From NCBI RefSeq assembly GCF_056746865.1, contig NZ_CM163382.1: a DNA stretch of 64,000 bases; one strand, given 5' to 3'. The position numbers and the translations under genes are program-made. Of this stretch, positions 3,498-64,000 are shown one piece after another. Below the pieces are notes generated by a model that made no database searches, was not told where the DNA came from, and saw only the letters and a list, made by a program, of their open reading frames with translations. Positions within the stretch are counted from its first letter, which is position 1. Every line of letters starts with the position of its first letter.

Positions 3498-5105
3498 TCA
3501 ATGTGCCTTGATATACAACTCTTTGCTGTAGACATAATCCTGGGGATTATGCAGCGGAAAACCGCCAACGTAGGGTTTAAGCAGTTTGATTAACGGCTGA
3601 TAGTAGATAGGAATCAGCGGTGCCTGTTGGTTGATGATCACTTCTGCCTGCTGATACAACGCATTACGCTTTGTCGCATCAGTGATCTGCGTGGCCTGGT
3701 TTAGTAAGGCGTCATACTGCGCATTTTTCCAGTGACCGACGTTTTCTTCACTATCGCTTTTGAGCGTGTTCAGGAAGCTGGAAGCATCATTGTACGTCGC
3801 ATCCCACGACTGCCGAGACAGCATGAAATCACCGGCTCGTCGGGCATCAAGATAGGTTTTCCACTCCATTGTGCGCAGCGTCACCTGTGCACCCAGCCAT
3901 TTTTTCCATTCGGAAGACAACGCTATCGCGGTCTTTTCATGCAGATCGTACTTGTTGTAGAACAGCTCAAAGCGTAGCGGATGAGAGGCGTCGTATCCCG
4001 CCTGTTTCAGCAAGGCTTTTGCCATCGCGACGCGCTCACTCATTGGCTTTTGCAGTTCATCGAACGTCGTCGCGCTAAAGCCTTTTACCTCTGGCGGCGT
4101 CAGCGTGGTTGCGGGCGTTCTCAACCCCAGTACCTTTTGCGCAATAAGCTGTCGATCAACCGTAAGATATAGCGCCCGACGCACTCGCACATCGTTAAAT
4201 GGCGGTTTCTCAAGGTTGAAGTTGTAATATTCGCTGTTCAGACGCGGAATAATTCGTAGCTCGCCAGGCAGTGATTTTTCAATGGCGGGAATTTGCTGCG
4301 CCGGAACCCAGGTGAGATCGACCTCTCCCGCGCGATAGCGGTTATAGCCGGTGACCGAATTATCTAGCGCCAGATACTCAACCTGTTGCAATACTGTATG
4401 TTGCGCATCGCGGTACTTTGGATTTTTGCGTGCAGTAATCTTTTCGTTAACTACCCACTGATCAAGCACAAAGGCACCGTTGTAAACCATGTTCTCTGGC
4501 TTACTCCAGCTATCGCCATGTTTAGCGATGACATGATGAGGAACCGGGAACAGCGTCGGCCAGGCGAGCATCGTCGTGAACCAAGGAACCGGCTGCTCAA
4601 GCGTAACTTCAAGAGTACGATCATCCGTCGCTTTGACACCCAGCGATGTAACATCTGCTTTACCCGCAACAATAGCTGCGGCATTGTTAATGTGCGCCTG
4701 TGCCAGATAGCCAGCAAAAGGGCTTGCCGTTTTCGGGTCAACCGCGCGCTGCCAGCCGAGGACAAAATCCTCTGCCGTCAGAGGCTGACCGTCGGACCAC
4801 TGCAAACCGCTACGCAGATGGAAAATATAGCGCTTGCCGCCGTCCAGTATCTCCCAGCGTTCAGCCTGAGCGGGCTGCACCTGGCCTTCACCGTCCATCC
4901 ATACCAGACCTTCAAACAGATCCAGCACAATCTGCGCGGCAGTATTCTCCTCCACCTTTTGCGGGTCGAGCGTACCTGGGTCGCTATGATTGTTGTAACG
5001 AAAGACTTGTTGCGGGGCGAGCGGTGTGTTGGCGGGAACGTCAGCAGCGTAGAGAGGAGCCGCACTTACCAGGCTGACCAGCCATAATAAATTTCGCGTA
5101 TACAT
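3498..5105 (-). CDS. ygiS: Periplasmic solute-binding protein (ABC transporter family 5, oligopeptide-binding like)
   Basis: ORF 3498..5168 trimmed to internal Met preceding signal peptide MYTRNLLWLVSLVSAAPLYA; 535 aa like YgiS. Confidence 0.8.
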   Translation of the reverse strand: MYTRNLLWLVSLVSAAPLYAADVPANTPLAPQQVFRYNNHSDPGTLDPQKVEENTAAQIVLDLFEGLVWMDGEGQVQPAQAERWEILDGGKRYIFHLRSGLQWSDGQPLTAEDFVLGWQRAVDPKTASPFAGYLAQAHINNAAAIVAGKADVTSLGVKATDDRTLEVTLEQPVPWFTTMLAWPTLFPVPHHVIAKHGDSWSKPENMVYNGAFVLDQWVVNEKITARKNPKYRDAQHTVLQQVEYLALDNSVTGYNRYRAGEVDLTWVPAQQIPAIEKSLPGELRIIPRLNSEYYNFNLEKPPFNDVRVRRALYLTVDRQLIAQKVLGLRTPATTLTPPEVKGFSATTFDELQKPMSERVAMAKALLKQAGYDASHPLRFELFYNKYDLHEKTAIALSSEWKKWLGAQVTLRTMEWKTYLDARRAGDFMLSRQSWDATYNDASSFLNTLKSDSEENVGHWKNAQYDALLNQATQITDATKRNALYQQAEVIINQQAPLIPIYYQPLIKLLKPYVGGFPLHNPQDYVYSKELYIKAH

Positions 5106-5237
5106 GGTATTCCTTACCGGAGAAATTATAAGCCCAACAACAATACGCCTGTGGCATTGTTCGCTCAAACTTATCGCGAGTGATTTGGCTCACACTCCGG
5201 TAAAGAAAAAAGCGAGTTGCCCCCGCTTTTCCATTAA

Positions 5238-5633
5238 TTAACGGATTTCATTCAATAGTTCTGGATGCTTATCCAGAACACGTAAAAGTTTGATTGTGGA
5301 AGGATGAGGTTGGGCATTGCCTTTTTCGTAACGCGAAAACGCATTTACACCTCCCCCAAAAATTTCGCTTGCCTCTTTTTGGGTAAGAGAGAGCTTTTTT
5401 CGAACCTTCACTATAAATTCAGGTGCCACTGTTTCGGCATTCACCGAAGCCCGAAATGCCTTTACTTGCGCCATGAAAGCATCTGACTCTTCTTTATTCA
5501 TGATGCTCTCTTCGCAATGGACACAATATAAACCGTGGATACCTTTCAATACTGTTTTTCGTCCACGGAAGGTGTATGGAATATCTTTAATGCCAGAAAC
5601 CATTTCTCCCTGGTGGCAAACCGGACATTTCAT
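5238..5633 (-). CDS. mqsA: MqsA antitoxin (HTH-Xre, zinc-binding N-terminal domain)
   Basis: 131 aa; MKCPVCHQGEM...CVHCEE zinc motif plus C-terminal HTH; 1 bp downstream of mqsR. Confidence 0.9.
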   Translation of the reverse strand: MKCPVCHQGEMVSGIKDIPYTFRGRKTVLKGIHGLYCVHCEESIMNKEESDAFMAQVKAFRASVNAETVAPEFIVKVRKKLSLTQKEASEIFGGGVNAFSRYEKGNAQPHPSTIKLLRVLDKHPELLNEIR

Positions 5634-5634
5634 A

Positions 5635-5931
5635 TTACTTCTCCTTAAACGAGACGATCAGTACGTCATGAATTACCGTAATTTTAAGATAAACCTGGCC
5701 TGTAACAAGCCTGGGTCTGTAAACATCCTGCCAGATAGTATGATCAGAGTAGGTGGTCATGCTTTTATAAAAGTCGCTCTCTGATAATCCAATGATAACA
5801 TTACACATACCATCAAAATCCAAACCTAACTCATCTGCATTTAACAGGGCACTACGTGTTGTACGAACTTGCCCGGCATTGACAAGTTTTTTAACCTGAC
5901 TCAAACGTGTATGTGGTGTGCGTTTTTCCAT
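5635..5931 (-). CDS. mqsR: MqsR mRNA interferase toxin
   Basis: 98 aa; MEKRTPHTRLSQVKKLVNAGQVRTT matches MqsR; toxin-first operon with mqsA. Confidence 0.9.
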   Translation of the reverse strand: MEKRTPHTRLSQVKKLVNAGQVRTTRSALLNADELGLDFDGMCNVIIGLSESDFYKSMTTYSDHTIWQDVYRPRLVTGQVYLKITVIHDVLIVSFKEK

Positions 5932-5961
5932 AACCCCCGCCTCCCTGTTACTTTAGTTATA

Positions 5962-6004
5962 ACCTAAAAGGTTAATTACAGCAATGAAAAAGCACCTAAA
6001 AGGT
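5962..6004. promoter_or_regulatory. Two MqsA operator palindromes (ACCT-AAA-AGGT) upstream of mqsR
   Basis: Sequence AACCTAAAAGGTT at 5961-5973 and ACCTAAAAGGT at 5994-6004, 30-70 bp upstream of mqsR start; matches known MqsA binding palindrome. Confidence 0.7.
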
Positions 6005-6135
6005 TAGTTAGATGTACGGAGATAGTGACCACACAAAACGTATTCTTTAAGGAAAGTGATTGACCATATAAGAAAGTGGCGCATTAGTAGCGCCAGTTTG
6101 AAGCAGGAATTTATAAGGGAAGCTGGAGTCAGGCA

Positions 6136-7874: not shown

Positions 7875-9220
7875 AATTTACCCAACGTCTTAGTCTGCGC
7901 GTCAGGCTGACGCTAATCTTTTTAATTCTGGCCTCGGTGACCTGGCTGCTTTCCAGCTTTGTCGCCTGGAAACAAACAACGGATAACGTCGATGAATTGT
8001 TCGACACCCAACTGATGCTGTTTGCCAAGCGGTTAAGTACGCTCGATCTCAACGAAATCAACGCGGCGGATCGCATGGCACAGACGCCAAATAGATTAAA
8101 ACACGGTCATGTTGATGACGATGCGCTGACCTTTGCCATCTTTACCCACGACGGCAGAATGGTCCTTAATGATGGCGATAACGGAGAAGATATTCCCTAT
8201 AGCTATCAACGGGAAGGTTTTGCTGACGGGCAACTGGTCGGTGAAGACGATCCTTGGCGTTTTGTCTGGATGACCTCACCTGATGGCAAATATCGCATCG
8301 TTGTTGGCCAGGAATGGGAATACCGTGAAGACATGGCGCTGGCGATTGTTGCCGGGCAATTGATCCCGTGGCTGGTCGCACTGCCGATTATGTTAATCAT
8401 CATGATGGTACTACTGGGTCGTGAACTCGCGCCGCTGAACAAACTGGCGCTGGCACTACGTATGCGTGACCCTGACTCGGAAAAACCACTAAACGCGACT
8501 GGCGTACCCAGCGAAGTGCGGCCACTGGTTGAGTCGCTAAATCAACTGTTCGCCCGCACACATGCGATGATGGTTCGTGAACGACGCTTTACCTCCGACG
8601 CAGCTCACGAACTTCGTAGCCCGTTAACGGCGCTGAAAGTGCAAACCGAAGTTGCGCAGCTCTCTGACGATGATCCGCAGGCGCGGAAAAAAGCACTGCT
8701 CCAATTACATTCCGGGATCGATCGCGCTACTCGTCTGGTTGATCAACTGCTCACGCTATCGCGGCTGGACTCACTGGATAACCTTCAGGACGTCGCGGAG
8801 ATCCCGCTTGAAGATCTCCTGCAATCGTCGGTGATGGATATTTACCACACGGCGCAGCAGGCGAAAATTGACGTGCGACTGACACTCAATGCCCACAGCA
8901 TCAAACGCACCGGGCAACCGCTATTGCTAAGTTTGTTGGTGCGAAATTTGCTGGATAACGCCGTGCGCTACAGTCCACAGGGCAGCGTGGTAGACGTCAC
9001 GCTGAATGCTGATAATTTCATCGTGAGGGATAACGGCCCCGGTGTGACACCAGAGGCACTGGCGCGAATTGGCGAACGCTTCTATCGCCCACCCGGACAA
9101 ACCGCTACCGGCAGCGGGCTTGGGCTATCGATTGTCCAGCGAATCGCCAAATTGCATGGCATGAATGTTGAATTTGGGAATGCGGAACAAGGTGGATTTG
9201 AGGCGAAGGTAAGCTGGTAA
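7871..9220 (+). CDS. qseC: Sensor histidine kinase QseC
   Basis: 449 aa; two TM segments, H-box [10 protein letters not shown], ATPase domain. Confidence 0.9.
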
Positions 9221-18977: not shown

Positions 18978-19461
18978 TACTGTTCAATATTGCCCCGTTT
19001 ACCGGGGCAATTTATTATACTTCGCAAATCATCACCCCCATCTATATATAATCAATCACATCCATCACTTTTATTTAACATTAATTCCTAATTTAATATT
19101 AAATCGTCATATGTAAGCGATACTGTAATTAAATTAATCAATAAAATCACTTGGTAACCTATTGTTTTATGAGTTTATTTATATCCAACACCGCATCAAA
19201 AATAGATTTAATAATTAAAAAACAATGTCGCTGGGATCACACTACACAATATTGAATATTGTTATTGATATATTGCCCACCTAGTATCGACCAAAAGAAA
19301 ATATTTGTTACAGAGAAATACAAAAATTCTAAAACCAGTAAAAAATATTCATAACGATTATTATTAATACATTTTAATTCACAAAACAAATTTATTAGCA
19401 CCACCTCAACAGTCGATATTCATCATTATTATATATTTGCGTTATATAAGGAGATATATCC

Positions 19462-21258
19462 ATGTTTGATAAATATAGAAAAACTCTGGTAGCCGGAGCT
19501 GTGGCGATAACTCTGGGTTTGTCAGCACCGGGGGTGATGGCAGCAGGTTTTAAACCCGCACCACCTGCCGGGCAACTGGGTGCAGTCATTGTCGATCCCT
19601 ACGGCAATGCACCACTGACCGCTTTGGTTGACTTAGATAGCCATGTCATTTCTGATGTCAAAGTTACCGTCCATGGGAAGGGCGAAAAAGGCGTAGAAAT
19701 CAGCTATCCCGTGGGTCAGGAATCACTAAAAACTTATGATGGTGTACCGATTTTTGGTCTTTATCAGAAATTTGCTAACAAAGTGACCGTTGAGTGGAAA
19801 GAAAACGGCAAGGTCATGAAAGATGATTATGTGGTGCACACTTCGGCCATCGTCAATAATTACATGGATAACCGCTCTATCTCCGATTTACAACAGACCA
19901 AAGTTATTAAAGTCGCACCGGGTTTTGAAGATCGCCTCTATCTGGTTAATACCCACACCTTTACCGCCCAAGGTTCCGATCTCCACTGGCATGGTGAGAA
20001 AGATAAAAATGCCGGTATCCTTGATGCGGGTCCGGCAACCGGCGCACTACCTTTTGATATCGCGCCCTTTACTTTCATTGTCGATACCGAAGGTGAATAC
20101 CGCTGGTGGCTGGATCAAGACACTTTCTACGATGGTCGTGACCGCGATATCAACAAGCGTGGTTATCTGATGGGTATCCGCGAAACACCACGCGGCACCT
20201 TTACCGCTGTACAAGGTCAGCACTGGTACGAGTTCGACATGATGGGGCAGGTGCTCGAAGATCACAAACTACCGCGCGGATTTGCTGACGCCACTCATGA
20301 GTCCATTGAGACGCCTAATGGCACAGTATTGTTGCGCGTAGGTAAGAGCAATTACCGTCGCGATGACGGCGTACACGTCACCACCATTCGTGACCATATC
20401 CTCGAAGTCGATAAATCTGGTCGCGTTGTCGATGTATGGGATCTGACCAAGATCCTCGATCCGAAACGCGATGCACTGCTCGGCGCGCTGGATGCAGGTG
20501 CAGTTTGCGTTAACGTTGACCTTGCCCATGCAGGACAACAGGCAAAACTGGAACCGGATACACCGTTCGGCGACGCGCTGGGTGTAGGGCCAGGTCGTAA
20601 CTGGGCGCACGTTAACTCAATCGCCTATGACGCAAAAGATGACTCAATCATCCTCTCCTCTCGCCACCAGGGTGTTGTGAAAATTGGTCGTGATAAGCAA
20701 GTGAAATGGATCCTTGCGCCCTCTAAAGGTTGGGAAAAACCGCTGGCCAGCAAGCTGCTGAAACCGGTTGATGCTAACGGTAAGCCAATTACCTGTAACG
20801 AAAATGGCCTGTGCGAAAACTCAGACTTCGACTTTACCTACACCCAGCATACCGCCTGGATTTCCAGCAAAGGAACGCTCACCATTTTTGATAATGGCGA
20901 TGGGCGTCATCTGGAACAACCTGCCTTACCAACCATGAAATACTCCCGCTTTGTGGAATATAAGATTGATGAGAAGAAAGGCACCGTTCAGCAAGTGTGG
21001 GAATACGGTAAAGAACGTGGCTACGATTTCTATAGCCCGATTACCTCCATCATTGAATATCAAGCCGACCGTAACACCATGTTTGGCTTCGGTGGTTCTA
21101 TTCATTTGTTCGATGTCGGGCAGCCAACCGTCGGTAAGTTGAACGAAATCGATTACAAAACCAAAGAAGTGAAAGTGGAAATCGACGTGCTGTCAGATAA
21201 ACCCAATCAGACTCACTATCGTGCACTGTTAGTCCGTCCACAACAGATGTTCAAATAA
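19462..21258 (+). CDS. assT: Arylsulfate sulfotransferase (periplasmic, signal peptide)
   Basis: 598 aa; signal peptide MFDKYRKTLVAGAVAITLGLSAPGVMA; family recognised from translation; followed by dedicated DsbL/DsbI genes. Confidence 0.85.
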   Translation: MFDKYRKTLVAGAVAITLGLSAPGVMAAGFKPAPPAGQLGAVIVDPYGNAPLTALVDLDSHVISDVKVTVHGKGEKGVEISYPVGQESLKTYDGVPIFGLYQKFANKVTVEWKENGKVMKDDYVVHTSAIVNNYMDNRSISDLQQTKVIKVAPGFEDRLYLVNTHTFTAQGSDLHWHGEKDKNAGILDAGPATGALPFDIAPFTFIVDTEGEYRWWLDQDTFYDGRDRDINKRGYLMGIRETPRGTFTAVQGQHWYEFDMMGQVLEDHKLPRGFADATHESIETPNGTVLLRVGKSNYRRDDGVHVTTIRDHILEVDKSGRVVDVWDLTKILDPKRDALLGALDAGAVCVNVDLAHAGQQAKLEPDTPFGDALGVGPGRNWAHVNSIAYDAKDDSIILSSRHQGVVKIGRDKQVKWILAPSKGWEKPLASKLLKPVDANGKPITCNENGLCENSDFDFTYTQHTAWISSKGTLTIFDNGDGRHLEQPALPTMKYSRFVEYKIDEKKGTVQQVWEYGKERGYDFYSPITSIIEYQADRNTMFGFGGSIHLFDVGQPTVGKLNEIDYKTKEVKVEIDVLSDKPNQTHYRALLVRPQQMFK

Positions 21259-21275
21259 TTAAGAAGGGAATAAAA

Positions 21276-21944
21276 ATGTCGAAATTAGGGATCTCATCAC
21301 TATTTAAAACCATACTGCTTACCGCAGCTTTGGCTGTTTCATTTACCGCTTCTGCATTTACCGAAGGCACGGATTACATGGTTCTGGAAAAACCTATTCC
21401 GAATGCCGACAAAACGCTGATTAAGGTATTTAGCTACGCCTGCCCGTTCTGTTACAAGTACGACAAAGCGGTTACCGGTCCGGTATCGGAAAAAGTGAAA
21501 GATATCGTTGCTTTTACTCCATTCCATCTGGAAACAAAAGGTGAATACGGCAAACAAGCAAGCGAAGTCTTTGCGGTCTTGATCAATAAAGATAAAGCAG
21601 CAGGTATTTCATTATTTGATGCTAACTCTCAGTTTAAGAAAGCCAAGTTTGCTTATTACGCGGCTTATCATGACAAAAAAGAACGCTGGTCTGATGGTAA
21701 AGATCCGGCTGCCTTTATCAAAACCGGACTGGACGCCGCAGGTATGAGTCAGGCCGATTTTGAAGCCGCGCTGAAAGAGCCTGCAGTTCAGGAAACGCTG
21801 GAAAAATGGAAAGCCTCTTATGAAGTTGCAAAAATCCAGGGCGTTCCGGCGTATGTCGTCAATGGTAAATACCTGATCTACACCAAGAGTATTAAATCTA
21901 TTGACTCAATGGCAGACCTTATCCGCGAGTTAGCAAGCAAATAA
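21276..21944 (+). CDS. dsbL: Periplasmic thiol:disulfide oxidoreductase DsbL (DsbA paralogue)
   Basis: 222 aa; signal peptide and CPFC active-site motif ([14 protein letters not shown]). Confidence 0.8.
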
Positions 21945-21958
21945 CAGGGAAACAGGCT

Positions 21959-22630
21959 ATGGGTATTAAGGGAATGTGGAAAGACCTTCGCACTTCACCG
22001 GTGGACACGCTGGTAAGATGGCAAGAACAACGTTTTTTGTGGTTGTTAATGGCCATTGCGATGGGCGCGTTAATTATCCTGGCGCACTCTTTCTTCCAGA
22101 TCTATCTCTACATGGCACCCTGTGAGCAATGTGTATACATTCGCTACGCCATGTTTGTGATGGTTATTGGAGGATTGGTTGCAGCGATCAACCCAAAGAA
22201 CATCATCCTAAAGCTAATTGGCTGCGTGATGGCATTTTACGGCAGCATTTTGGGACTGAAGTTTTCGCTCAAACTGAACGATATCCACCATGCAGTACAT
22301 AATCCGGATCCCGATTCACTGTTTGGCGTACAGGGTTGCTCTACCGATCCAACTTTTCCCTTTAACCTGCCGCTGGCACAGTGGGCACCAAATTGGTTCA
22401 AGCCTACCGGGGATTGTGGCTATGACGCACCAATCGTTCCTGATGGCGTCACACTGAGCAGCACGCAACAGTGGTTTGTGGAAATGTATCAGCAATCTGA
22501 AGGCTGGTATCTGCTACCACCATGGCATTTTATGAATATGGCTCAGGCTTGTATGCTGGCTTTTGGTATGTGTCTGGTGCTGCTGGTCATTATGAGTGGC
22601 GCATGGGCGCTTAAAATCATCAGAGGCTAA
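21959..22630 (+). CDS. dsbI: Membrane disulfide oxidoreductase DsbI (DsbB paralogue)
   Basis: 223 aa polytopic membrane protein with paired cysteines (CEQC) immediately downstream of dsbL. Confidence 0.8.
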
Positions 22631-22675
22631 CTCAGCAACACCCGAAGCCAGTCGTTCTGGCTTCGGGTTCTTTTA

Positions 22676-49878: not shown

Positions 49879-50003
49879 ATTTACTCCTTTCTAACATCAC
49901 CAGGAAAAGTATAACGGATTGAAAATACATTGTTTATAAAAACAGCAGGCGCGCGGTAATGGCTGGATTGCGACACGGAGTTACTTTATAATCCGCTACC
50001 ATG

Positions 50004-50078
50004 GCCCCTTAGCTCAGTGGTTAGAGCAGGCGACTCATAATCGCTTGGTCGTTGGTTCAAACCCAACAGGGGCCACCA
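50004..50078 (+). tRNA. ileX: tRNA-Ile (anticodon CAU; lysidine-modified Ile2 type)
   Basis: GGCCCCTTAGCTCAGTGGTTAGAGCAGGCGACTCATAATCGCTTGGTCGTTGGTTCAAACCCAACAGGGGCCACCA; cloverleaf with CAT anticodon in loop CTCATAA; encoded CCA. Confidence 0.9.
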
Positions 50079-55229: not shown

Positions 55230-58076
55230 TCAGAAAGTCACATTCAGCGTGGCCTGACCGTTATAGCCTTCAGCGCTGTTGCCGCTGACACTGTGGGCAT
55301 AACCGGCCTGAACGCCCAGAGTGATATTTTCCCGGACACGGGCTTCCAGTCCGGCCTGCAGGTCCAGTGACGTGCCATTCTGTGACGGTGAGAACGTCAT
55401 GTTACTGCCGGCTTCAGCTGTACCCATGCTCATGTCACCCCGGGAGCTGAAAGTGCGGATAACAGAAGGCTGTACCCACCAGTTCACCGGCAGTTCACTC
55501 ACACGGTGTTTTGTACTGTCGCGCAGAGTGTCACGGGATGAGGTGCCTTCGCCAAAGGTCATATCGTTGTGGCTGCCCAGACGGAAGCCGGCACGCACAT
55601 GTTGTGTACTGCCATGCCCGAACTTCACATAACCGGCGTTATCCTGGCCGTCATCCAGGGAGAGCCCCTGCCAGGTGTACTGCAGTTGTGGCTCCAGCAT
55701 CAGGTTGTCAGTGATACTGAAGGGCAGACCGGTTTCCAGTGAGCCCAGCCAGCCCCAGCCCCGGGCGCGGAAGTCGTTATTGTCCGATGACGCTTTCATG
55801 CTGTGGCGGGTTCCCTGTGCCACAATGTCAGCCCACAGGCCGGAGGACGTGTGTGTCAGATTCAGGTATCCGCCCAGGCTGCCGGCATCATCCCGGACTG
55901 TGCCGGCGCGGGAACCGTCATCATCCTTAACATCAACGGAAGAATGACCTGCAGCACCATACACCCCTGTCGTCAGAGACATACCTGCAACCTCTGTTCT
56001 CAGCAGGTCACCCTCCAGACGGACGAAGCCATAGCTGCCGCTGCTTTCCGGCGTGGCTCCACGGGCAATACCGCCGTTGTTATCGTGACCGAGATGACCG
56101 CCCTGAATGCTGAGACGGACGCTGTTATTTTCACCGTTTACACCGGTCTGATGGCTGCGGGAGCCTGCCAGAATCCGGTCATAGTCCATTGCCTGTGTCA
56201 GCATGGAGGCATACAGGGGGACTTCAGCACGATAAGCATTTTCACTGCGCAGGTACCAGTCTTCATCGCTGTCACGGTTCAGGGTGTAGTTAAAGGCACC
56301 GGCCTGAAGCGGGCGACTCAGGGCAAACGCACCTTCTTCTGTGGTGGCACCATTCTGTGCATCCACAACCCGGATACCCTGTCCGGAGGTTGCCACCCCG
56401 AGGTTACTGTTTCCGACATTTGTGAACGCAAGCCAGGTTTTGCCGGTTGCCTGACCACCATTAATCACCAGCTGGTCAGAGGCATTGCTGCCATCAAGGC
56501 GAACACGCATATTGATGGTGCCACCCTGACCGGTGAGGTTACTGGTTGTCAGTTTATGGAACGTTACCGGGGCGTTGCCTTTTGCAACAGCACGGCTCAG
56601 TATGGCATCCGGTGTTGTCTGATTGTCAAAGTAAATCTCCCCTGCGTTAACAATATCGCCGGTACTGACCACATCACCATTCAGTACCATGCTGGCGCCT
56701 TTACTGAGCTGTGTTCTGCCACTCAGACTTCCCCCGGCAGCCAGCATCAGTGTTCCACGATGTCCGACAGTGGTGTTGCCAGCCTGTCCCCCGGCATTAA
56801 CCGTAAAGCTGCCGCCATTTTCCAGCAGCAGGCCGCTGGCCTGACCGGATATGCCATCAATACTGAACTTACCGCTGGCATTGGTCCCCTCAACAGTGGC
56901 ACCACTGTCTGCAATCAGGGCACCACCGGATGTCATGGTGACACCTGTCGCCTTACCACCGGCAGACACTGCCAGGGTTCCGCCGTCATCCACCCGTGTT
57001 TTCTGCGCTGAATGGCCCTCCAGTACATCCAGGCGACCGCCGGACTCCAGAACAACACCGTCAGCCTTACCGTTTTCCACCGTGAAATTCCCCAGACGGT
57101 TGCTGCCGGTGACGGTTGCCGCCGTACTGGTGACCAGTGCGCCGCCCTGCTTCAGGGTGACATTCGTGGCTGTACCACCGGCGTTCACCTGCAGTTTGCC
57201 TTTCTGGTTAACGGTGGAGAAATCCGCCAGACCACCTTCCTTGATAATCTGCCAGCCGTCACTGTTTACAACAGTGCCAGACGCCGTACCGCCGTTGTGC
57301 ACATACTGGTACCCCCCATTCAGCGTGGTATCCAGTGCGTGACCATGTACAGTCTGGTCGCCGCCGGCATAAACCACAGTGGTATTTGCCGTTCCTTCAG
57401 CAGCCACAATCTGACGACCATTTTTATTGATGGTGGTGCGTACGGCATCTCCGTAGACGGTCTGCCCGGTATCACCATTTTCTGCATCCGGTCCCCCTTC
57501 CGCGCCGGTATTCACAACCGTGTCGGTTGCCATTGCGCCGGATTTGACGGCCTGCCAGCCCTTCTCATTAATGACGGTACCCGTTGCAATCCCGCCTTCA
57601 TGTATCCACTGCTCACCGCCGTTCAGAGTGGTGTTCACTGCCTGCCCCTGAAGGCTCTGTCCGCCTCCGGCACTGATAACCGTGTCTGAAACGCTTCCTC
57701 CGGCATTCACTCTCTGAAGACCACCACCGGTGACAGTAGTGTTGTTGGCGGTACCGCCATTTTGTATCCATTGGCCGCCGGTATTCGCCTCGTTATCCGG
57801 CCCATACTCCAGCCCGGTACTGATGGTCATTCCGTTGGCCGTACCGAAGACAATCTGGTTGTCATGATTTGTCAGTGTTCCGCCGCTCACGGTTTCTCCC
57901 GCCTGTACGACCGTGTCAGCAGCCAGTACCGGGACTGACGTGACAGCAGCAAGAGACAGCGCAACCGCCACACCGGTGCGTTTTCCCCGTGAGCGCGCCA
58001 GTTCGGAAGCCACCACCAGGGTGCCCGTAATGTGATTCCATACCAGCCTGTAGCTGGTGTTCAGATGTCGTTTCAT
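55230..58076 (-). CDS. flu: Antigen 43 self-associating autotransporter adhesin (short ~950 aa variant)
   Basis: ORF trimmed to MKRHLNTSYRLVWNHITGTLVVASELARSRGKR extended signal peptide; beta-helical passenger repeats; C-terminal beta-barrel ending ...YNGQATLNVTF. Confidence 0.9.
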   Translation of the reverse strand: MKRHLNTSYRLVWNHITGTLVVASELARSRGKRTGVAVALSLAAVTSVPVLAADTVVQAGETVSGGTLTNHDNQIVFGTANGMTISTGLEYGPDNEANTGGQWIQNGGTANNTTVTGGGLQRVNAGGSVSDTVISAGGGQSLQGQAVNTTLNGGEQWIHEGGIATGTVINEKGWQAVKSGAMATDTVVNTGAEGGPDAENGDTGQTVYGDAVRTTINKNGRQIVAAEGTANTTVVYAGGDQTVHGHALDTTLNGGYQYVHNGGTASGTVVNSDGWQIIKEGGLADFSTVNQKGKLQVNAGGTATNVTLKQGGALVTSTAATVTGSNRLGNFTVENGKADGVVLESGGRLDVLEGHSAQKTRVDDGGTLAVSAGGKATGVTMTSGGALIADSGATVEGTNASGKFSIDGISGQASGLLLENGGSFTVNAGGQAGNTTVGHRGTLMLAAGGSLSGRTQLSKGASMVLNGDVVSTGDIVNAGEIYFDNQTTPDAILSRAVAKGNAPVTFHKLTTSNLTGQGGTINMRVRLDGSNASDQLVINGGQATGKTWLAFTNVGNSNLGVATSGQGIRVVDAQNGATTEEGAFALSRPLQAGAFNYTLNRDSDEDWYLRSENAYRAEVPLYASMLTQAMDYDRILAGSRSHQTGVNGENNSVRLSIQGGHLGHDNNGGIARGATPESSGSYGFVRLEGDLLRTEVAGMSLTTGVYGAAGHSSVDVKDDDGSRAGTVRDDAGSLGGYLNLTHTSSGLWADIVAQGTRHSMKASSDNNDFRARGWGWLGSLETGLPFSITDNLMLEPQLQYTWQGLSLDDGQDNAGYVKFGHGSTQHVRAGFRLGSHNDMTFGEGTSSRDTLRDSTKHRVSELPVNWWVQPSVIRTFSSRGDMSMGTAEAGSNMTFSPSQNGTSLDLQAGLEARVRENITLGVQAGYAHSVSGNSAEGYNGQATLNVTF

Positions 58077-58293
58077 CAGCTTTTCCTTACAGAGGGTGAA
58101 TAAAAAAGCCGGTACCCACAAATGTGGATACCGGCAGGTACAAAACAGCATGGTCAGATAAAGTGGTTTTTCCCGGACATAAATGCTTCCCCTCTCTCAT
58201 CCGCCAGAGAAGTATCAGTCCGTTGTGTGCAATTCCGTTCTGCATGATGAAGAGATTCAACTGCCTTTTCGCAGGCCATTAACCACTATAAAC

Positions 58294-58329
58294 GATCGAT
58301 AGTAACGATCGATACCTGTTTTATTGATC
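58294..58329. promoter_or_regulatory. Three clustered Dam GATC sites (Ag43 phase-variation switch / OxyR operator)
   Basis: GATC at 58294, 58307 and 58326 within 36 bp (AACGATCGATAGTAACGATCGATACCTGTTTTATTGATCG) ~220 bp upstream of Ag43 start. Confidence 0.7.
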
Positions 58330-58448
58330 GTTTTATTCTATTGATTGCAAGGCGGTCACGCAAGAGAAACAGGAGGATCATGAGGTGTTTGTGTCATGTT
58401 TTCAGTTGGTTAACGCAATGTAATCAGGCATTTCCCCTGGCAGACTGT

Positions 58449-59321
58449 TCAGAAGAAAATCCAGTTCCATACAGCGCGGGCAACAGAGACCACCGAGTCA
58501 CGGACGGCACGCAGAACCGTGCGTGCAACAGAGGCAATACAGACGCTCTCCGCCGTGTCAAATATCCGGTCCACCGCACCGGTAAACTGTTCACGGGCCT
58601 GAGACCGGACAGATTCCGTGCGCAGCTCGTCCTGCAGGCGGGTCATCAGGGGACTGGCGGCATGGTCGGGAAGCGCTGTCATGAGCGCACTGACCAGCGT
58701 ATCCAGTTCCCAGCCGGTGCAGGCCGATACGGCCACAACCGGATGTACGGGTCGGAACAGCCGGAATACCGCATCTGTTTTCTCACGAATGTTCTGTGCC
58801 TGTGCGGGAGAAGGCTGAATGCCGGCCATATCCCATTCATGGCAGGGCTCCGTTTTGTCGGCCTGCGTCACCACAAACAGTACCCGCTGATGTCCCCGGT
58901 GCAGGATGTGTCGCCAGAAATACTCATCCACAGACAGGGCACGGTCATCGGCTTTAATCAGCCACAGTACCAGGTCAAGTTCAGGCAGAATGTTACGGTA
59001 CAGGGCTTCATACTCTGCATCCCTGTCCCGGCTCTCGCCCACCCCGGGCAGGTCAGTGATAATCATGCTGTGACCGTGGCCACTCAGACGGAAGCGCTGC
59101 ACTTCCCGGGTGCCGGCGTGAACATCACTGACCGGTGTGACTTCCCCCTGAAACAGCGCATTACAGAGTGAGGATTTACCGGCCCCGCTTTTACCCATAA
59201 TGCCAATCACGGGTTCGTGGCTGGTGAGTTTACGCAGATGTTCCAGGATGTGACGGGAAAGCGAATAAGGCAGGGAGGAGAGCGGTTTTTCAATTGCCTC
59301 AATGGCATCAGACGGATTCAT
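58449..59321 (-). CDS. YfjP/YeeP/YkfA-family GTPase
   Basis: P-loop GKSGAGKSS, G3 DLPG, G4 TQADK; start taken at MNPSDAIEAIEK (ORF extends to 59360). Confidence 0.75.
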   Translation of the reverse strand: MNPSDAIEAIEKPLSSLPYSLSRHILEHLRKLTSHEPVIGIMGKSGAGKSSLCNALFQGEVTPVSDVHAGTREVQRFRLSGHGHSMIITDLPGVGESRDRDAEYEALYRNILPELDLVLWLIKADDRALSVDEYFWRHILHRGHQRVLFVVTQADKTEPCHEWDMAGIQPSPAQAQNIREKTDAVFRLFRPVHPVVAVSACTGWELDTLVSALMTALPDHAASPLMTRLQDELRTESVRSQAREQFTGAVDRIFDTAESVCIASVARTVLRAVRDSVVSVARAVWNWIFF

Positions 59322-59584: not shown

Positions 59585-61141
59585 ATGACAAGTATTCAAC
59601 AACGAGCAGAACTGCACCGCCAGATATGGCAAATTGCCAATGATGTCAGAGGTTCTGTTGACGGATGGGATTTTAAGCAATACGTTCTGGGCGCACTTTT
59701 CTACCGTTTTATCAGCGAAAATTTTTCCAGTTATATTGAAGCCGGTGATGACAGTATCTGTTATGCGAAACTGGATGACAGCGTAATTACTGATGACATT
59801 AAAGACGATGCCATCAAAACTAAAGGCTACTTCATCTACCCCAGTCAGCTTTTCTGCAACGTAGCGGCGAAAGCAAATACTAATGACAGGCTGAATGCAG
59901 ATTTAAACAGCATCTTCGTTGCTATCGAAAGTTCTGCTTACGGTTATCCTTCAGAAGCTGACATCAAAGGTTTGTTTGCTGATTTCGATACCACCAGTAA
60001 CCGCCTGGGTAACACCGTTAAGGATAAAAATGCCCGCCTGGCTGCGGTTCTGAAAGGGGTTGAAGGGTTAAAACTTGGTGACTTCAACGAACATCAGATT
60101 GACCTGTTCGGTGATGCCTATGAGTTCCTGATTTCTAACTATGCGGCAAATGCCGGTAAGTCAGGCGGTGAGTTCTTTACACCGCAGCACGTCTCCAGGC
60201 TGATTGCACAACTGGCTATGCACGGGCAGACCAGCGTTAACAAAATCTACGACCCGGCAGCGGGTTCCGGCTCACTGTTGTTGCAGGCGAAAAAACAGTT
60301 TGATAACCACATCATCGAAGAAGGCTTTTTCGGTCAGGAAATCAACCATACGACCTATAACCTGGCGCGTATGAACATGTTTTTGCACAACATCAACTAC
60401 GACAAGTTTGATATCAAGCTGGGTAATACACTGACTGAGCCACACTTCAGAGATGAAAAACCGTTTGATGCCATCGTTTCTAACCCGCCGTATTCGGTGA
60501 AATGGATTGGCAGCGATGACCCGACGCTGATTAACGATGAACGTTTTGCCCCGGCTGGCGTTCTGGCCCCCAAATCAAAAGCTGACTTCGCCTTTGTACT
60601 ACATGCGCTGAACTATCTTTCTGCCAAAGGTCGCGCCGCGATTGTCTGCTTCCCGGGTATTTTTTACCGTGGCGGCGCGGAGCAGAAAATCCGTCAGTAT
60701 CTGGTCGATAATAACTATGTCGAAACCGTGATTTCACTGGCACCGAACCTGTTCTTTGGCACCACCATTGCCGTCAATATTCTGGTGCTGTCTAAACATA
60801 AAACGGATACCAAAGTTCAGTTTATTGACGCCAGCGAACTGTTCAAAAAAGAGACTAATAACAACATCCTGACCGATGCTCATATCGAACAGATTATGCA
60901 GGTATTTGCCGGCAAGGAAGATGTTGCTCATCTGGCGAAATCTGTCACGTTTGAGACTGTTGTCGCGAATGACTATAACCTGTCGGTGAGCAGCTATGTG
61001 GAAGCGAAAGATAACCGCGAAGTGGTGGACATTGCTCAGCTCAACGCCGAGCTGAAATCTACTGTCGCCAGGATTGACCAGCTTCGCAGGGATATTGATG
61101 CCATCGTCGCTGAAATTGAAGGCGAGGAGCAGGAGGCATGA
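59585..61141 (+). CDS. hsdM: Type I restriction-modification methyltransferase subunit HsdM (type IC, EcoR124-like)
   Basis: 518 aa; SAM-binding DPAAGSGS and catalytic NPPY motif; overlaps hsdS by 4 nt. Confidence 0.9.
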
Positions 61142-62343
61142 GTAGCGTGAACTTCTTGGAAAAGCTGTTGGATGGCGTTGAGGTCGAGTGGAAGACACTT
61201 GGGCAAACTTGCAAAATTGAAACAGGAAAGCTTAATGCGAATGCGGCTGTTGATGATGGAGAGTATATGTTCTTCACGACAGCCAAAGAGACAAGCAAAA
61301 TTGATAAATTCCGCTGGGATACAGAGGCATTGCTGATTGCAGGCAATGCGAATGTTGGTGAGGTGAAGCATTACATCGGCAAGTTTGAGGCTTATCAGCG
61401 CACCTATGTTCTGACAAATTTCGACGAAAATGTAAGTGTTAGATTTTTGTATTTTGTGCTTAGCCATAGCCTGAAGAAATATCTCGAGGAAAGAACAAAT
61501 AGCGCGGCAATGACATATATCGTGCTATCAACCTTAGAGAATTTCCCTATCCCCATCCCCTGCCCAGGCAACCCCCAAAAATCCCTTGCCATCCAGTCTG
61601 AAATCGTTCGGATTCTGGATAAATTTACTGCACTTACCGCTGAGCTTACCGCTGAGCTTAACATGCGTAAAAAACAGTACAACTACTATCGCGACCAGTT
61701 GTTGAGTTTTAAAGAGGGTGAGGTTGAGTGGAAGACTTTGGGGGAAATTGGAGATTTTACATATGGATATGCAGCCAAAGCCATGGATTCAGGAGATGCC
61801 CGTTTCGTGAGAATTACTGACATAAATAAAGACGGGAAGCTATCGAAAGAAAACCCAATGTACGTTGAATTAAATGAGGAAAATGAGAAATATACCTTAG
61901 ACAAAAATGATTTACTCATGGCAAGAACTGGGGCAACCTTTGGTAAAACAATGATTTTTGAAGAAGATTATCCAGCAGTATACGCTGGTTTTTTAATAAA
62001 GTTGAACCTAAATAAAACGATTATTAATGCCAAATATTACTGGCACTTTGCACAAAGTGATTTTTTTTGGGAACAGGCTAATAAATTAGTATCTGGTGGT
62101 GGGCAACCACAGTTTAATGCTAATGCACTGAAACAAGTCAGAGTACCTATTCCATACCCATCTCACCCTCAAAAATCTTTAGACGAACAGGGGCGTATTG
62201 TGGATATTCTGGATAAGTTTGATGCAATCGCAGCTTCCATCACCGAAGGTCTCCCGCGTGAAATCGAGTTACGTCAAAAACAATACGAATACTATCGTGA
62301 TTTACTGCTCAGTTTCCCAAAACCTGAAACTGTCAGTAAATAA
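61138..62343 (+). CDS. hsdS: Type I R-M specificity subunit HsdS (type IC)
   Basis: 401 aa; two TRDs separated by central conserved region with TAELTAEL repeat and conserved KKQYxYYRDxLLSF blocks after each TRD. Confidence 0.85.
61627..61659 (+). repeat. Tandem 12-bp repeat (ACCGCTGAGCTT x2, preceded by partial ACTGCACTT) encoding TAEL-TAEL in hsdS
   Basis: Direct reading of hsdS codons 164-174: [11 protein letters not shown]. Confidence 0.8.
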
Positions 62344-62464
62344 TTGACCATTGCTACCGACCGGGCCTCCTTAACATCCGGTCAGTATATAGACTATTTT
62401 TTACGCGCCGGAAGTCACTCTTAACGCCCTTCCGGCTCTTGCCAGGCGGCACAAAGGATGCGCT

Positions 62465-64000
62465 ATGACTCATCAAACACACACCATTGCTGAATCCAAT
62501 AACTTTATCGTCCTTGATAAGTACATCAAAGCTGAGCAAACAAGCGACAGCTACCAGAGCGAATCGGACCTGGAACGTGAACTGATTCAGGACCTGCGGA
62601 ATCAGGGTTATGAATTTATTTCCGTAAAATCACAGTCGGCAATGCTGTCTAATGTTCGGGAACAGCTTCAGAGCCTCAATGGTGTGATGTTTAATGACAG
62701 CGAGTGGCGGCGCTTCACGGAGCAGTATCTGGACAACCCCAGCGATGGTATTCTGGATAAAACCCGTAAAATCCATATCGACTATATCTGCGACTTTATT
62801 TTTGACGACGGGCGACTTGAGAACATCTATTTGATAGATAAAAAGAATCTCATGCGCAATAAGGTGCAGATTATCCAGCAGTTTGAACAGACGGGTTCTC
62901 ATGCTAACCGTTATGACGTCACGATCCTGGTTAATGGTTTACCGCTGGTGCAAATCGAACTAAAAAAACGCGGGGTGGCGATTCGTGAGGCTTTCAACCA
63001 GATACATCGTTACAGTAAAGAGAGTTTTAACAGCGAAAATTCCCTGTTTAAGTATCTGCAACTGTTTGTCATTTCTAACGGCACCGATACCCGTTATTTT
63101 GCCAACACGACAAAGCGCGATAAAAACAGTTTTGACTTCACCATGAATTGGGCGAAATCAGACAACACGCTGATTAAAGACCTCAAAGACTTTACCGCTA
63201 CCTTTTTCCAGAAACATACTCTGCTGAATGTTCTGGTGAACTACAGCGTTTTTGACAGTAGTCAGACGCTACTGGTGATGCGACCGTACCAGATTGCCGC
63301 CACCGAGCGCATTCTGTGGAAAATTAAGAGTTCCTTTACAGCGAAGAACTGGTCAAAACCGGAAAGCGGTGGGTATATCTGGCACACTACCGGTTCTGGT
63401 AAAACCCTCACCAGCTTTAAAGCCGCGCGTCTGGCAACAGAGCTGGACTTTATTGATAAAGTCTTCTTTGTGGTCGACAGGAAAGACCTCGATTACCAGA
63501 CCATGAAGGAATATCAGCGTTTTTCGCCAGACAGCGTCAACGGCTCGGAAAATACCGCAGGCCTTAAACGAAATCTGGATAAGGACGATAACAAAATTAT
63601 CGTCACTACTATTCAGAAACTCAATAACCTGATGAAAGCAGAAAGCGACCTGCCTGTATATAATCAGCAAGTGGTGTTTATATTTGATGAATGCCACCGC
63701 AGCCAGTTTGGAGAAGCGCAGAAAAACCTGAAGAAGAAATTCAAACGCTATTATCAGTTTGGTTTTACCGGCACCCCTATTTTCCCGGAAAACGCCTTAG
63801 GCTCAGAAACAACCGCCAGCGTATTTGGCCGTGAATTGCATTCGTATGTGATTACCGATGCGATTCGTGACGAAAAAGTGCTCAAATTCAAGGTGGACTA
63901 CAACGATGTGCGGCCACAGTTTAAGTCTTTAGAGACAGAAACTGACGAGAAAAAACTGAGTGCGGCTGAAAATCAGCAGGCGTTTCTTCACCCCATGCGT
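62465..64000 (+). CDS. hsdR: Type I restriction endonuclease subunit HsdR (type IC), 5' portion only, truncated by window end
   Basis: In-frame translation [20 protein letters not shown]...; helicase motif I TGSGKT and motif II DECH; open to window end (not in ORF track because no stop). Confidence 0.9.

Follow-up and report, generated by a model that had tools for sequence, protein, structure and literature searches.

Background

In agn43 genes of the K-12 type, three GATC sites overlap a single OxyR site, at which OxyR represses transcription and, in doing so, protects the same sites from Dam. Methylation, in turn, abrogates the binding of OxyR and permits expression. Both states are heritable, and cells switch between them at about 1e-3 per generation. 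The gene is locked OFF in a dam mutant and locked ON in an oxyR mutant or when Dam is overproduced, and the redox state of OxyR is irrelevant to the outcome. In the UPEC strain EC958, mutation of oxyR raised the transcription of agn43 121-fold. The start of the transcript has been mapped to 228 bp before the ATG, a distance which fits a leader of the K-12 type with a start a few bases before its first GATC. The leader itself, known as IsrC, has been described as an antitermination-controlled leader.

OxyR and Dam are also coupled in other switches. A study of opvAB gives 32 bp between half-site centres as the canonical distance for reduced OxyR, and for gtr the same half-site spacing follows from the reported GATC positions.

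Here we describe a locus within a window of 64 kb, i.e. the whole stretch of DNA that was analysed. An earlier note, drawn from the letters alone, had pointed to three Dam sites within 36 bp upstream of an autotransporter gene and had likened them to the agn43 switch. On the evidence of its sequence, the locus is very probably the promoter/operator of an Ag43/Cah adhesin gene, acting as a classical Dam/OxyR phase-variation switch. The element is already known and has textbook status; here it occurs in a sequence class which is not that of K-12 and which is the commoner of the two.

Results

The GATC triplet

Three GATC sites are present at 58294-58297, 58307-58310 and 58326-58329, measuring exactly 36 bp from the first G to the last C and falling inside the interval 58280-58335 highlighted previously. 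The gene lies on the minus strand, a point to be added to the earlier note, and the sites are upstream of it, as had been stated. Read along the gene strand, they are as follows:

58326..58329, unstranded: GATC-I, promoter-proximal, a plain sequence reading
58307..58310, unstranded: GATC-II, invariant among 11 alleles
58294..58297, unstranded: GATC-III, promoter-distal, invariant among 11 alleles

The G of GATC-I is at 58329, that of GATC-II at 58310 and that of GATC-III at 58297, with spacings of 19 and 13 bp, and the three sites precede the ATG by 253, 234 and 221 nt, respectively. Their assignment to the leader of the gene needs qualifying: they stand at the start of a leader of about 253 nt, overlapping the promoter/operator, and are not adjacent to the start codon.

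The earlier note had pointed to the count and the spacing of the GATCs. A bare count of three within 36 bp is common here: the 64-kb window has nine such clusters, where a first-order Markov model predicts about 1.05. The distinctive part is the exact arrangement: the 19 + 13 bp spacing occurs once in the 64-kb window, and the 36-mer spanning the triplet has no second copy there at <=3 mismatches and no match in 100 shuffles. The triplet is meaningful because it is homologous to the K-12 operator, and not because of the number of its GATCs.

The eight other clusters, at 8716, 11364, 20440, 41783, 41894, 45545, 47566 and 48753, are all in coding sequence (qseC, parE, an assT-like ORF, the ttdA/ttdB junction, ttdB, the 5' end of dnaG and, twice, rpoD). 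GATC motifs are reportedly distributed unevenly on the E. coli chromosome (Henaut et al. 1996), and the eight coding clusters are consistent with such a pattern. A fourth GATC near the triplet, at 58376-58379 (CATGATCC), is upstream of the -35 hexamer and does not belong to the triplet; it is missing from the other 10 alleles compared and is outside the predicted OxyR half-sites.

Putative promoter and predicted OxyR contacts

The sequence around the triplet can be read in register with K-12, giving the following elements:

58358..58363, minus strand: putative -35 hexamer TTGCGT (TTGTCC in K-12), placed by the in-register K-12 comparison, 17 nt upstream of the -10
58335..58340, minus strand: -10 hexamer TAGAAT, invariant in 11/11 alleles and within a 21-nt block identical to K-12
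58327..58341, minus strand: predicted OxyR half-site A, ATAGAATAAAACGAT, matching ATAGnTnnnAnCTAT at 8/10, overlapping the -10 and GATC-I and identical in 11 alleles
58314..58321, minus strand: class-specific spacer block AAACAGGT (TCTATTTT in K-12), outside both predicted half-sites
58295..58309, minus strand: predicted OxyR half-site B, ATCGTTACTATCGAT, 8/10, bracketed by GATC-II and GATC-III, 8/10 in 11 alleles

The -35 hexamer matches the consensus at 3/6 positions, compared with 4/6 in K-12. It is because of this score of 3/6 that a generic sigma-70 promoter scan reported no promoter at the operator, and the promoter was assigned by homology. The predicted transcription start is the G of GATC-I at 58329 on the minus strand, and the isrC of K-12 starts, in its RefSeq annotation, at the homologous G.

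Half-sites were scored with a single 15-bp ATAGnTnnnAnCTAT pattern over the 64-kb window, allowing all spacers from 0 to 30 nt. A score of 8/10 is reached at just 17 positions in the 64 kb, three of which are inside the 47-bp operator stretch. With a spacer of 17 nt, half-sites A and B yield a pair score of 16/20, the unique maximum of the window, and their centres are 32 bp apart; the spacing, which the earlier note had named as a possible ground for refutation, shows no incompatibility with the OxyR footprint. Across the alleles (n=11), variation in half-site B is confined to the unspecified nnn positions. Its two mismatches are exactly the C and the G which create GATC-II and GATC-III, and the six methylatable adenines of the triplet all occupy consensus-matching half-site positions. 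Within the operator, the block at 58314..58321 is the one large departure from K-12.

Wallecha et al. 2002 reportedly found that transcription begins with the G of the upstream GATC and that positions -16 to +42 are protected by OxyR(C199S). We take this footprint to correspond to about 58345..58288 in the window, an interval which encloses both predicted half-sites.

Other arrangements were considered. An overlapping alternative distal half-site at 58299-58313, with a spacer of 13 nt, also gives 16/20 here; it scores 8/10 in the window and 6-8 in the other alleles, and is thus less conserved. The compact 37-bp Toledano OxyR tetrad (ATAGnTnnnAnCTAT-N7-ATAGnTnnnAnCTAT) was rejected as ambiguous, its best score being 13/20, a value common to 8 sites in the window; in the best register of K-12, the window scores 10/20 vs 14/20 for K-12 itself. 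This tetrad, with four recognition elements in adjacent major grooves and a 7-nt spacer, is that of promoters activated by oxidised OxyR, and it has no good match at the operator.

A terminator scan also flagged 58293-58311 (CGATCGTTACTATCGATCG followed by a T-rich tail) as terminator-like. This call corresponds to the dyad of OxyR half-site B, which also folds as the first hairpin of the leader.

Leader RNA and target gene

The operator is followed by an IsrC-like leader and by an intact adhesin gene:

58095..58331, minus strand: leader RNA, Rfam RF00124 IS102 (= IsrC), 74 bits vs a gathering score of 46, E = 3e-12
58102..58135, minus strand: intrinsic-terminator-like hairpin with a T6 run, 12 bp with 8 G-C pairs and a loop of 4
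58084..58088, minus strand: Shine-Dalgarno AAGGA, 7 nt before the ATG and 3' of the terminator, conserved in all alleles
55230..58076, minus strand: intact Ag43/Cah autotransporter adhesin gene, 948 aa, NF033177

The RF00124 match extends over positions 1-206 of the 206 in the model, which starts with ACGAUC at GATC-I, 2 nt upstream of its G. The terminator is made up of a hairpin at 58135..58108 and a T6 run at 58107..58102, and it is near-identical in K-12 and in all alleles. Folding of the whole leader is only marginally better than that of shuffled controls (z = -1.98). The coding sequence begins with the ATG at 58076-58074 (MKRHLN...) and has its stop at 55230. Its product matches the auto_Ag43 equivalog NF033177 with 1983 bits against a cutoff of 1200, residues 1-948 aligning to model positions 1-948, and the RefSeq annotation of the gene in close relatives agrees with Ag43/Cah.

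Two allele classes of the operator

The comparison with the K-12 regulatory region, proposed as a check of the note, finds the same GATC spacing and an operator homologous in register, belonging to a different variant class. In K-12 flu/agn43, the sites are likewise 19 + 13 bp apart (1818, 1837 and 1850 in the MG1655 extract L001). The block of 21 nt AATAGAATAAAACGATCAATA, from the -10 TAGAAT to just past GATC-I, is identical, as are the blocks TATCGATCGTT and TATCGATCG around GATC-II and GATC-III, and between -18 and +40, counted from the G of GATC-I, 44/59 positions agree. By contrast, the -35 hexamer and the spacer block are TTGTCC and TCTATTTT in K-12 and TTGCGT and AAACAGGT here. Furthermore, the central part of the leader is unrelated, and the distance from GATC-I to the ATG is 222 nt in K-12 vs 253 here, i.e. 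31 nt longer in the window. A MAFFT alignment introduced a 13-nt gap into the operator, setting GATC-II of K-12 against GATC-III of the window; according to the ungapped register, this is an artefact.

To these two sequences were added CFT073 agn43b and eight more alleles spanning the identity range, all 11 being compared in register. GATC is found at 0, +19 and +32 in every one of them, and 0/12 GATC columns vary, compared with 57/105 columns overall; the 11 alleles are related by descent, and such column counts are descriptive and carry no probability. The alleles fall into two classes. The K-12 class (K-12 flu and CFT073 agn43b) has the -35 TTGTCC, a CTAT-containing block after GATC-I and 222-224 nt to the ATG. 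The window-type class, composed of the window and the eight further alleles, has the -35 TTGCGT, the block AAACAGGT, an unrelated central leader and 253 nt to the ATG. A search of 5426 complete E. coli genomes located the window-type leader in 3449 of them, at 5145 places, and the K-12 type in 1813, at 1971 places. The region which defines the classes corresponds to 58140-58375 in the window and to 1775-1990 in the MG1655 extract L001.

Genomic context

The upstream side of the operator is occupied by a conserved neighbour which marks the island context:

58449..59321, minus strand: YeeP-like GTPase family gene

The 401-bp intergenic region is 100% identical to that of E. coli CFSAN061769, and it is matched in 4017/5426 complete E. 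coli genomes, always between genes of the GTPase family and Ag43/Cah genes. By blastn, CFSAN061769 has 98-99% identity with the window and is collinear with it over 37713-61202, with indels elsewhere; it is a different strain. The Ag43/Cah gene is followed by the usual companions of the island, namely DUF932, antirestriction, RadC-like JAB, DUF987 and YeeU/CbtA genes. The island adjoins a CAU-anticodon tRNA at 50003-50078, beside mug and rpoD, and no integrase gene adjoining this tRNA was found within the window. The tRNA at 50003-50078, which has a CAT anticodon in the DNA, is called tRNA-Met by ARAGORN and tRNA-Ile (ileX type) by RefSeq.

Several further features of the window were recorded. 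Upstream of the GTPase gene and divergent from it, a type I restriction-modification system takes up 59585-64000, with hsdM at 59585-61141, hsdS from 61138 and an hsdR which is cut off by the end of the window. In its central part (~61203-62235), hsdS differs from that of the closest genome, which would fit a distinct recognition specificity. CFSAN061769 lacks two segments of the window. The first, 18979-22675, carries an assT-like ORF of 598 aa with dsbL-like and dsbI genes; the second, 3540-6133, codes for a ygiS-type substrate-binding protein and for an mqsA-family antitoxin, next to which is a small ORF.

The operator in Citrobacter and Enterobacter

An exact-pattern scan of GTDB species representatives recovered the operator in Citrobacter braakii, C. 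amalonaticus and Enterobacter wuhouensis. In these three enterobacterial genomes, it lies downstream of the same GTPase gene, and the place of Ag43 is taken, after a leader of about 129 nt, by two small signal-peptide proteins (154 and 157 aa), with the usual island genes beyond them. Neither NCBIfam nor Pfam has a match for the 154- and 157-aa cargo proteins, BLASTP shows no similarity between them and IrmA, and their homologues form four clusters only. As sequence evidence, this distribution suggests that the operator switch may be a portable module. The stretch from Citrobacter braakii ATCC 51113 (3977-5160 of extract L014) contains the -10 and the triple-GATC operator, at around 5100-5160, and so do extracts L013 and L016. 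The upstream region of a window-type E. coli agn43 is also carried by the 1560-bp contig JAIJJM010000733.1, binned in a Collinsella MAG, which is probably contamination by E. coli.

Discussion

The match with the agn43 architecture, as proposed in the earlier note, is borne out at all levels considered, since the spacing, the stretch from the -10 to GATC-I, the predicted OxyR half-sites, the IsrC/IS102 leader and the Ag43/Cah gene all agree. The anatomy of the sequence, its homology, the conservation pattern and the intactness of the target gene are direct observations. From these we infer OxyR binding, differential methylation and switching in this allele class. A sigma-70 promoter (-35 TTGCGT, -10 TAGAAT) would start transcription at or next to GATC-I, and reduced OxyR, as a dimer of dimers, would occupy the two half-sites 32 bp apart. 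Once bound, OxyR would block RNA polymerase and keep Dam away from the three GATCs, so that the sites stay unmethylated and the OFF state is inherited; methylation by Dam after replication, before OxyR rebinds, would exclude OxyR and keep the gene ON. The transcript would then pass through the IsrC-like leader of about 253 nt, whose terminator may serve as a second control point, with premature termination as the alternative to read-through. Both dam and oxyR are core E. coli genes and are located outside the 64-kb window.

Three other readings of the locus have to be weighed. It might descend from the Ag43 switch and no longer switch, its changed -35 and spacer leaving the gene locked ON, locked OFF or weakly expressed. 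Such a loss would be in keeping with the replacement of the 8-nt block which gives K-12 its CTAT match, and with a -35 of 3/6 instead of 4/6 and a negative promoter scan; moreover, in the accessible literature we found no direct experiment on the window-type class, nor any methylome specific to these Cah-type operators. We nevertheless regard it as unlikely, given that the class is present in 3449 of the 5426 complete E. coli genomes, that the half-site scores equal those of K-12 and the divergent block is in the spacer between the half-sites, and that the target gene is intact. The GATCs and the half-site contact positions, furthermore, are invariant in the nine alleles of the class, whose nearby bases vary, and invariant contacts amid varying bases are what purifying selection would be expected to leave in a functioning operator.

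The cluster could alternatively serve mainly another role, such as the binding of SeqA to hemimethylated DNA or the stabilisation of the IsrC-like RNA by a CGATCG stem-loop. At the leader's 5' end, the inverted repeat CGATCG...CGATCG does form a hairpin of 6 bp; yet this hairpin is a by-product of the dyad symmetry of half-site B, GATC-I is outside it and equally invariant, and the folding of the leader barely exceeds that of shuffled controls. As for SeqA, seqA mutants have been reported with an altered switching bias of Ag43, whereas a review credits sequestration in the OFF state to OxyR and not to SeqA; taken together, we hold such a role to be highly improbable. The last reading, that of a functionless chance cluster, can appeal to the surplus of triple-GATC clusters in the window (nine against about one). 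It is effectively refuted because of homology and conservation: spacing and surroundings have their homologue in the characterised operator of K-12 and are kept in thousands of genomes, and the 36-mer was never matched in the 100 shuffles.

As a discovery, the Dam/OxyR switch proposed here is minor, the locus being annotated as Ag43/Cah in thousands of genomes. It has value as a positive control, in that a reader of the sequence alone can recognise the switch correctly. Two aspects are of modest specialist interest, namely that the commonest operator/leader class of E. coli differs from the K-12 reference, and that the operator is found before unrelated genes for small secreted proteins in Citrobacter and Enterobacter. 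We put forward, as a tentative idea, that the window-type class, which the classical K-12 experiments did not address, may differ from the K-12 type in OxyR affinity, promoter strength or read-through, and hence in switching rates, and that the module may also be portable to new cargo. If this were true, the several Ag43/Cah copies of some genomes could each be under an epigenetic switch of their own, independent of the others and differently biased, and the Citrobacter and Enterobacter genes would extend Dam/OxyR phase variation to a new kind of cargo.

Comparison with known switches

Like the switch proposed here, the pap switch sets heritable ON and OFF states by having Dam compete at GATC sites with a protein that binds DNA. 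It differs in employing Lrp and PapI at two GATCs 102 bp apart, an arrangement with no equivalent at this locus. In the gtr (P22) and opvAB switches of Salmonella, the half-sites likewise overlap GATCs and are spaced by 32 bp, methylation abolishes the binding of OxyR in them, and gtr has half-sites with GATC pairs 13 bp apart, as in half-site B here. In contrast, three or four half-sites precede their promoters, OxyR occupies these in alternative ways and it has an activator role, whereas the window has two conserved predicted half-sites, one of them over the -10, where OxyR would act purely as a repressor.

Cah/Ag43 alleles of STEC and other E. coli with a leader of the window type have intergenic regions 90-100% identical to that of the window, the same operator class and leader, and proteins of 948-949 aa. 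These alleles have a G after GATC-I, where the window has an A, as K-12 does, and among the 11 alleles compared the window alone has the fourth GATC. With respect to K-12 flu/agn43 as a whole locus, the protein is 1039 aa there vs 948 here, which is the length of Cah, and K-12 holds its gene in CP4-44, while the island described here is located at a CAU-anticodon tRNA (ileX-type) by mug. Beyond these differences, the two loci have in common two half-sites of 8/10 set 32 bp apart, the terminator hairpin, the Shine-Dalgarno sequence, an Ag43 gene beginning with MKRHLN... and a YeeP-like GTPase gene as neighbour.
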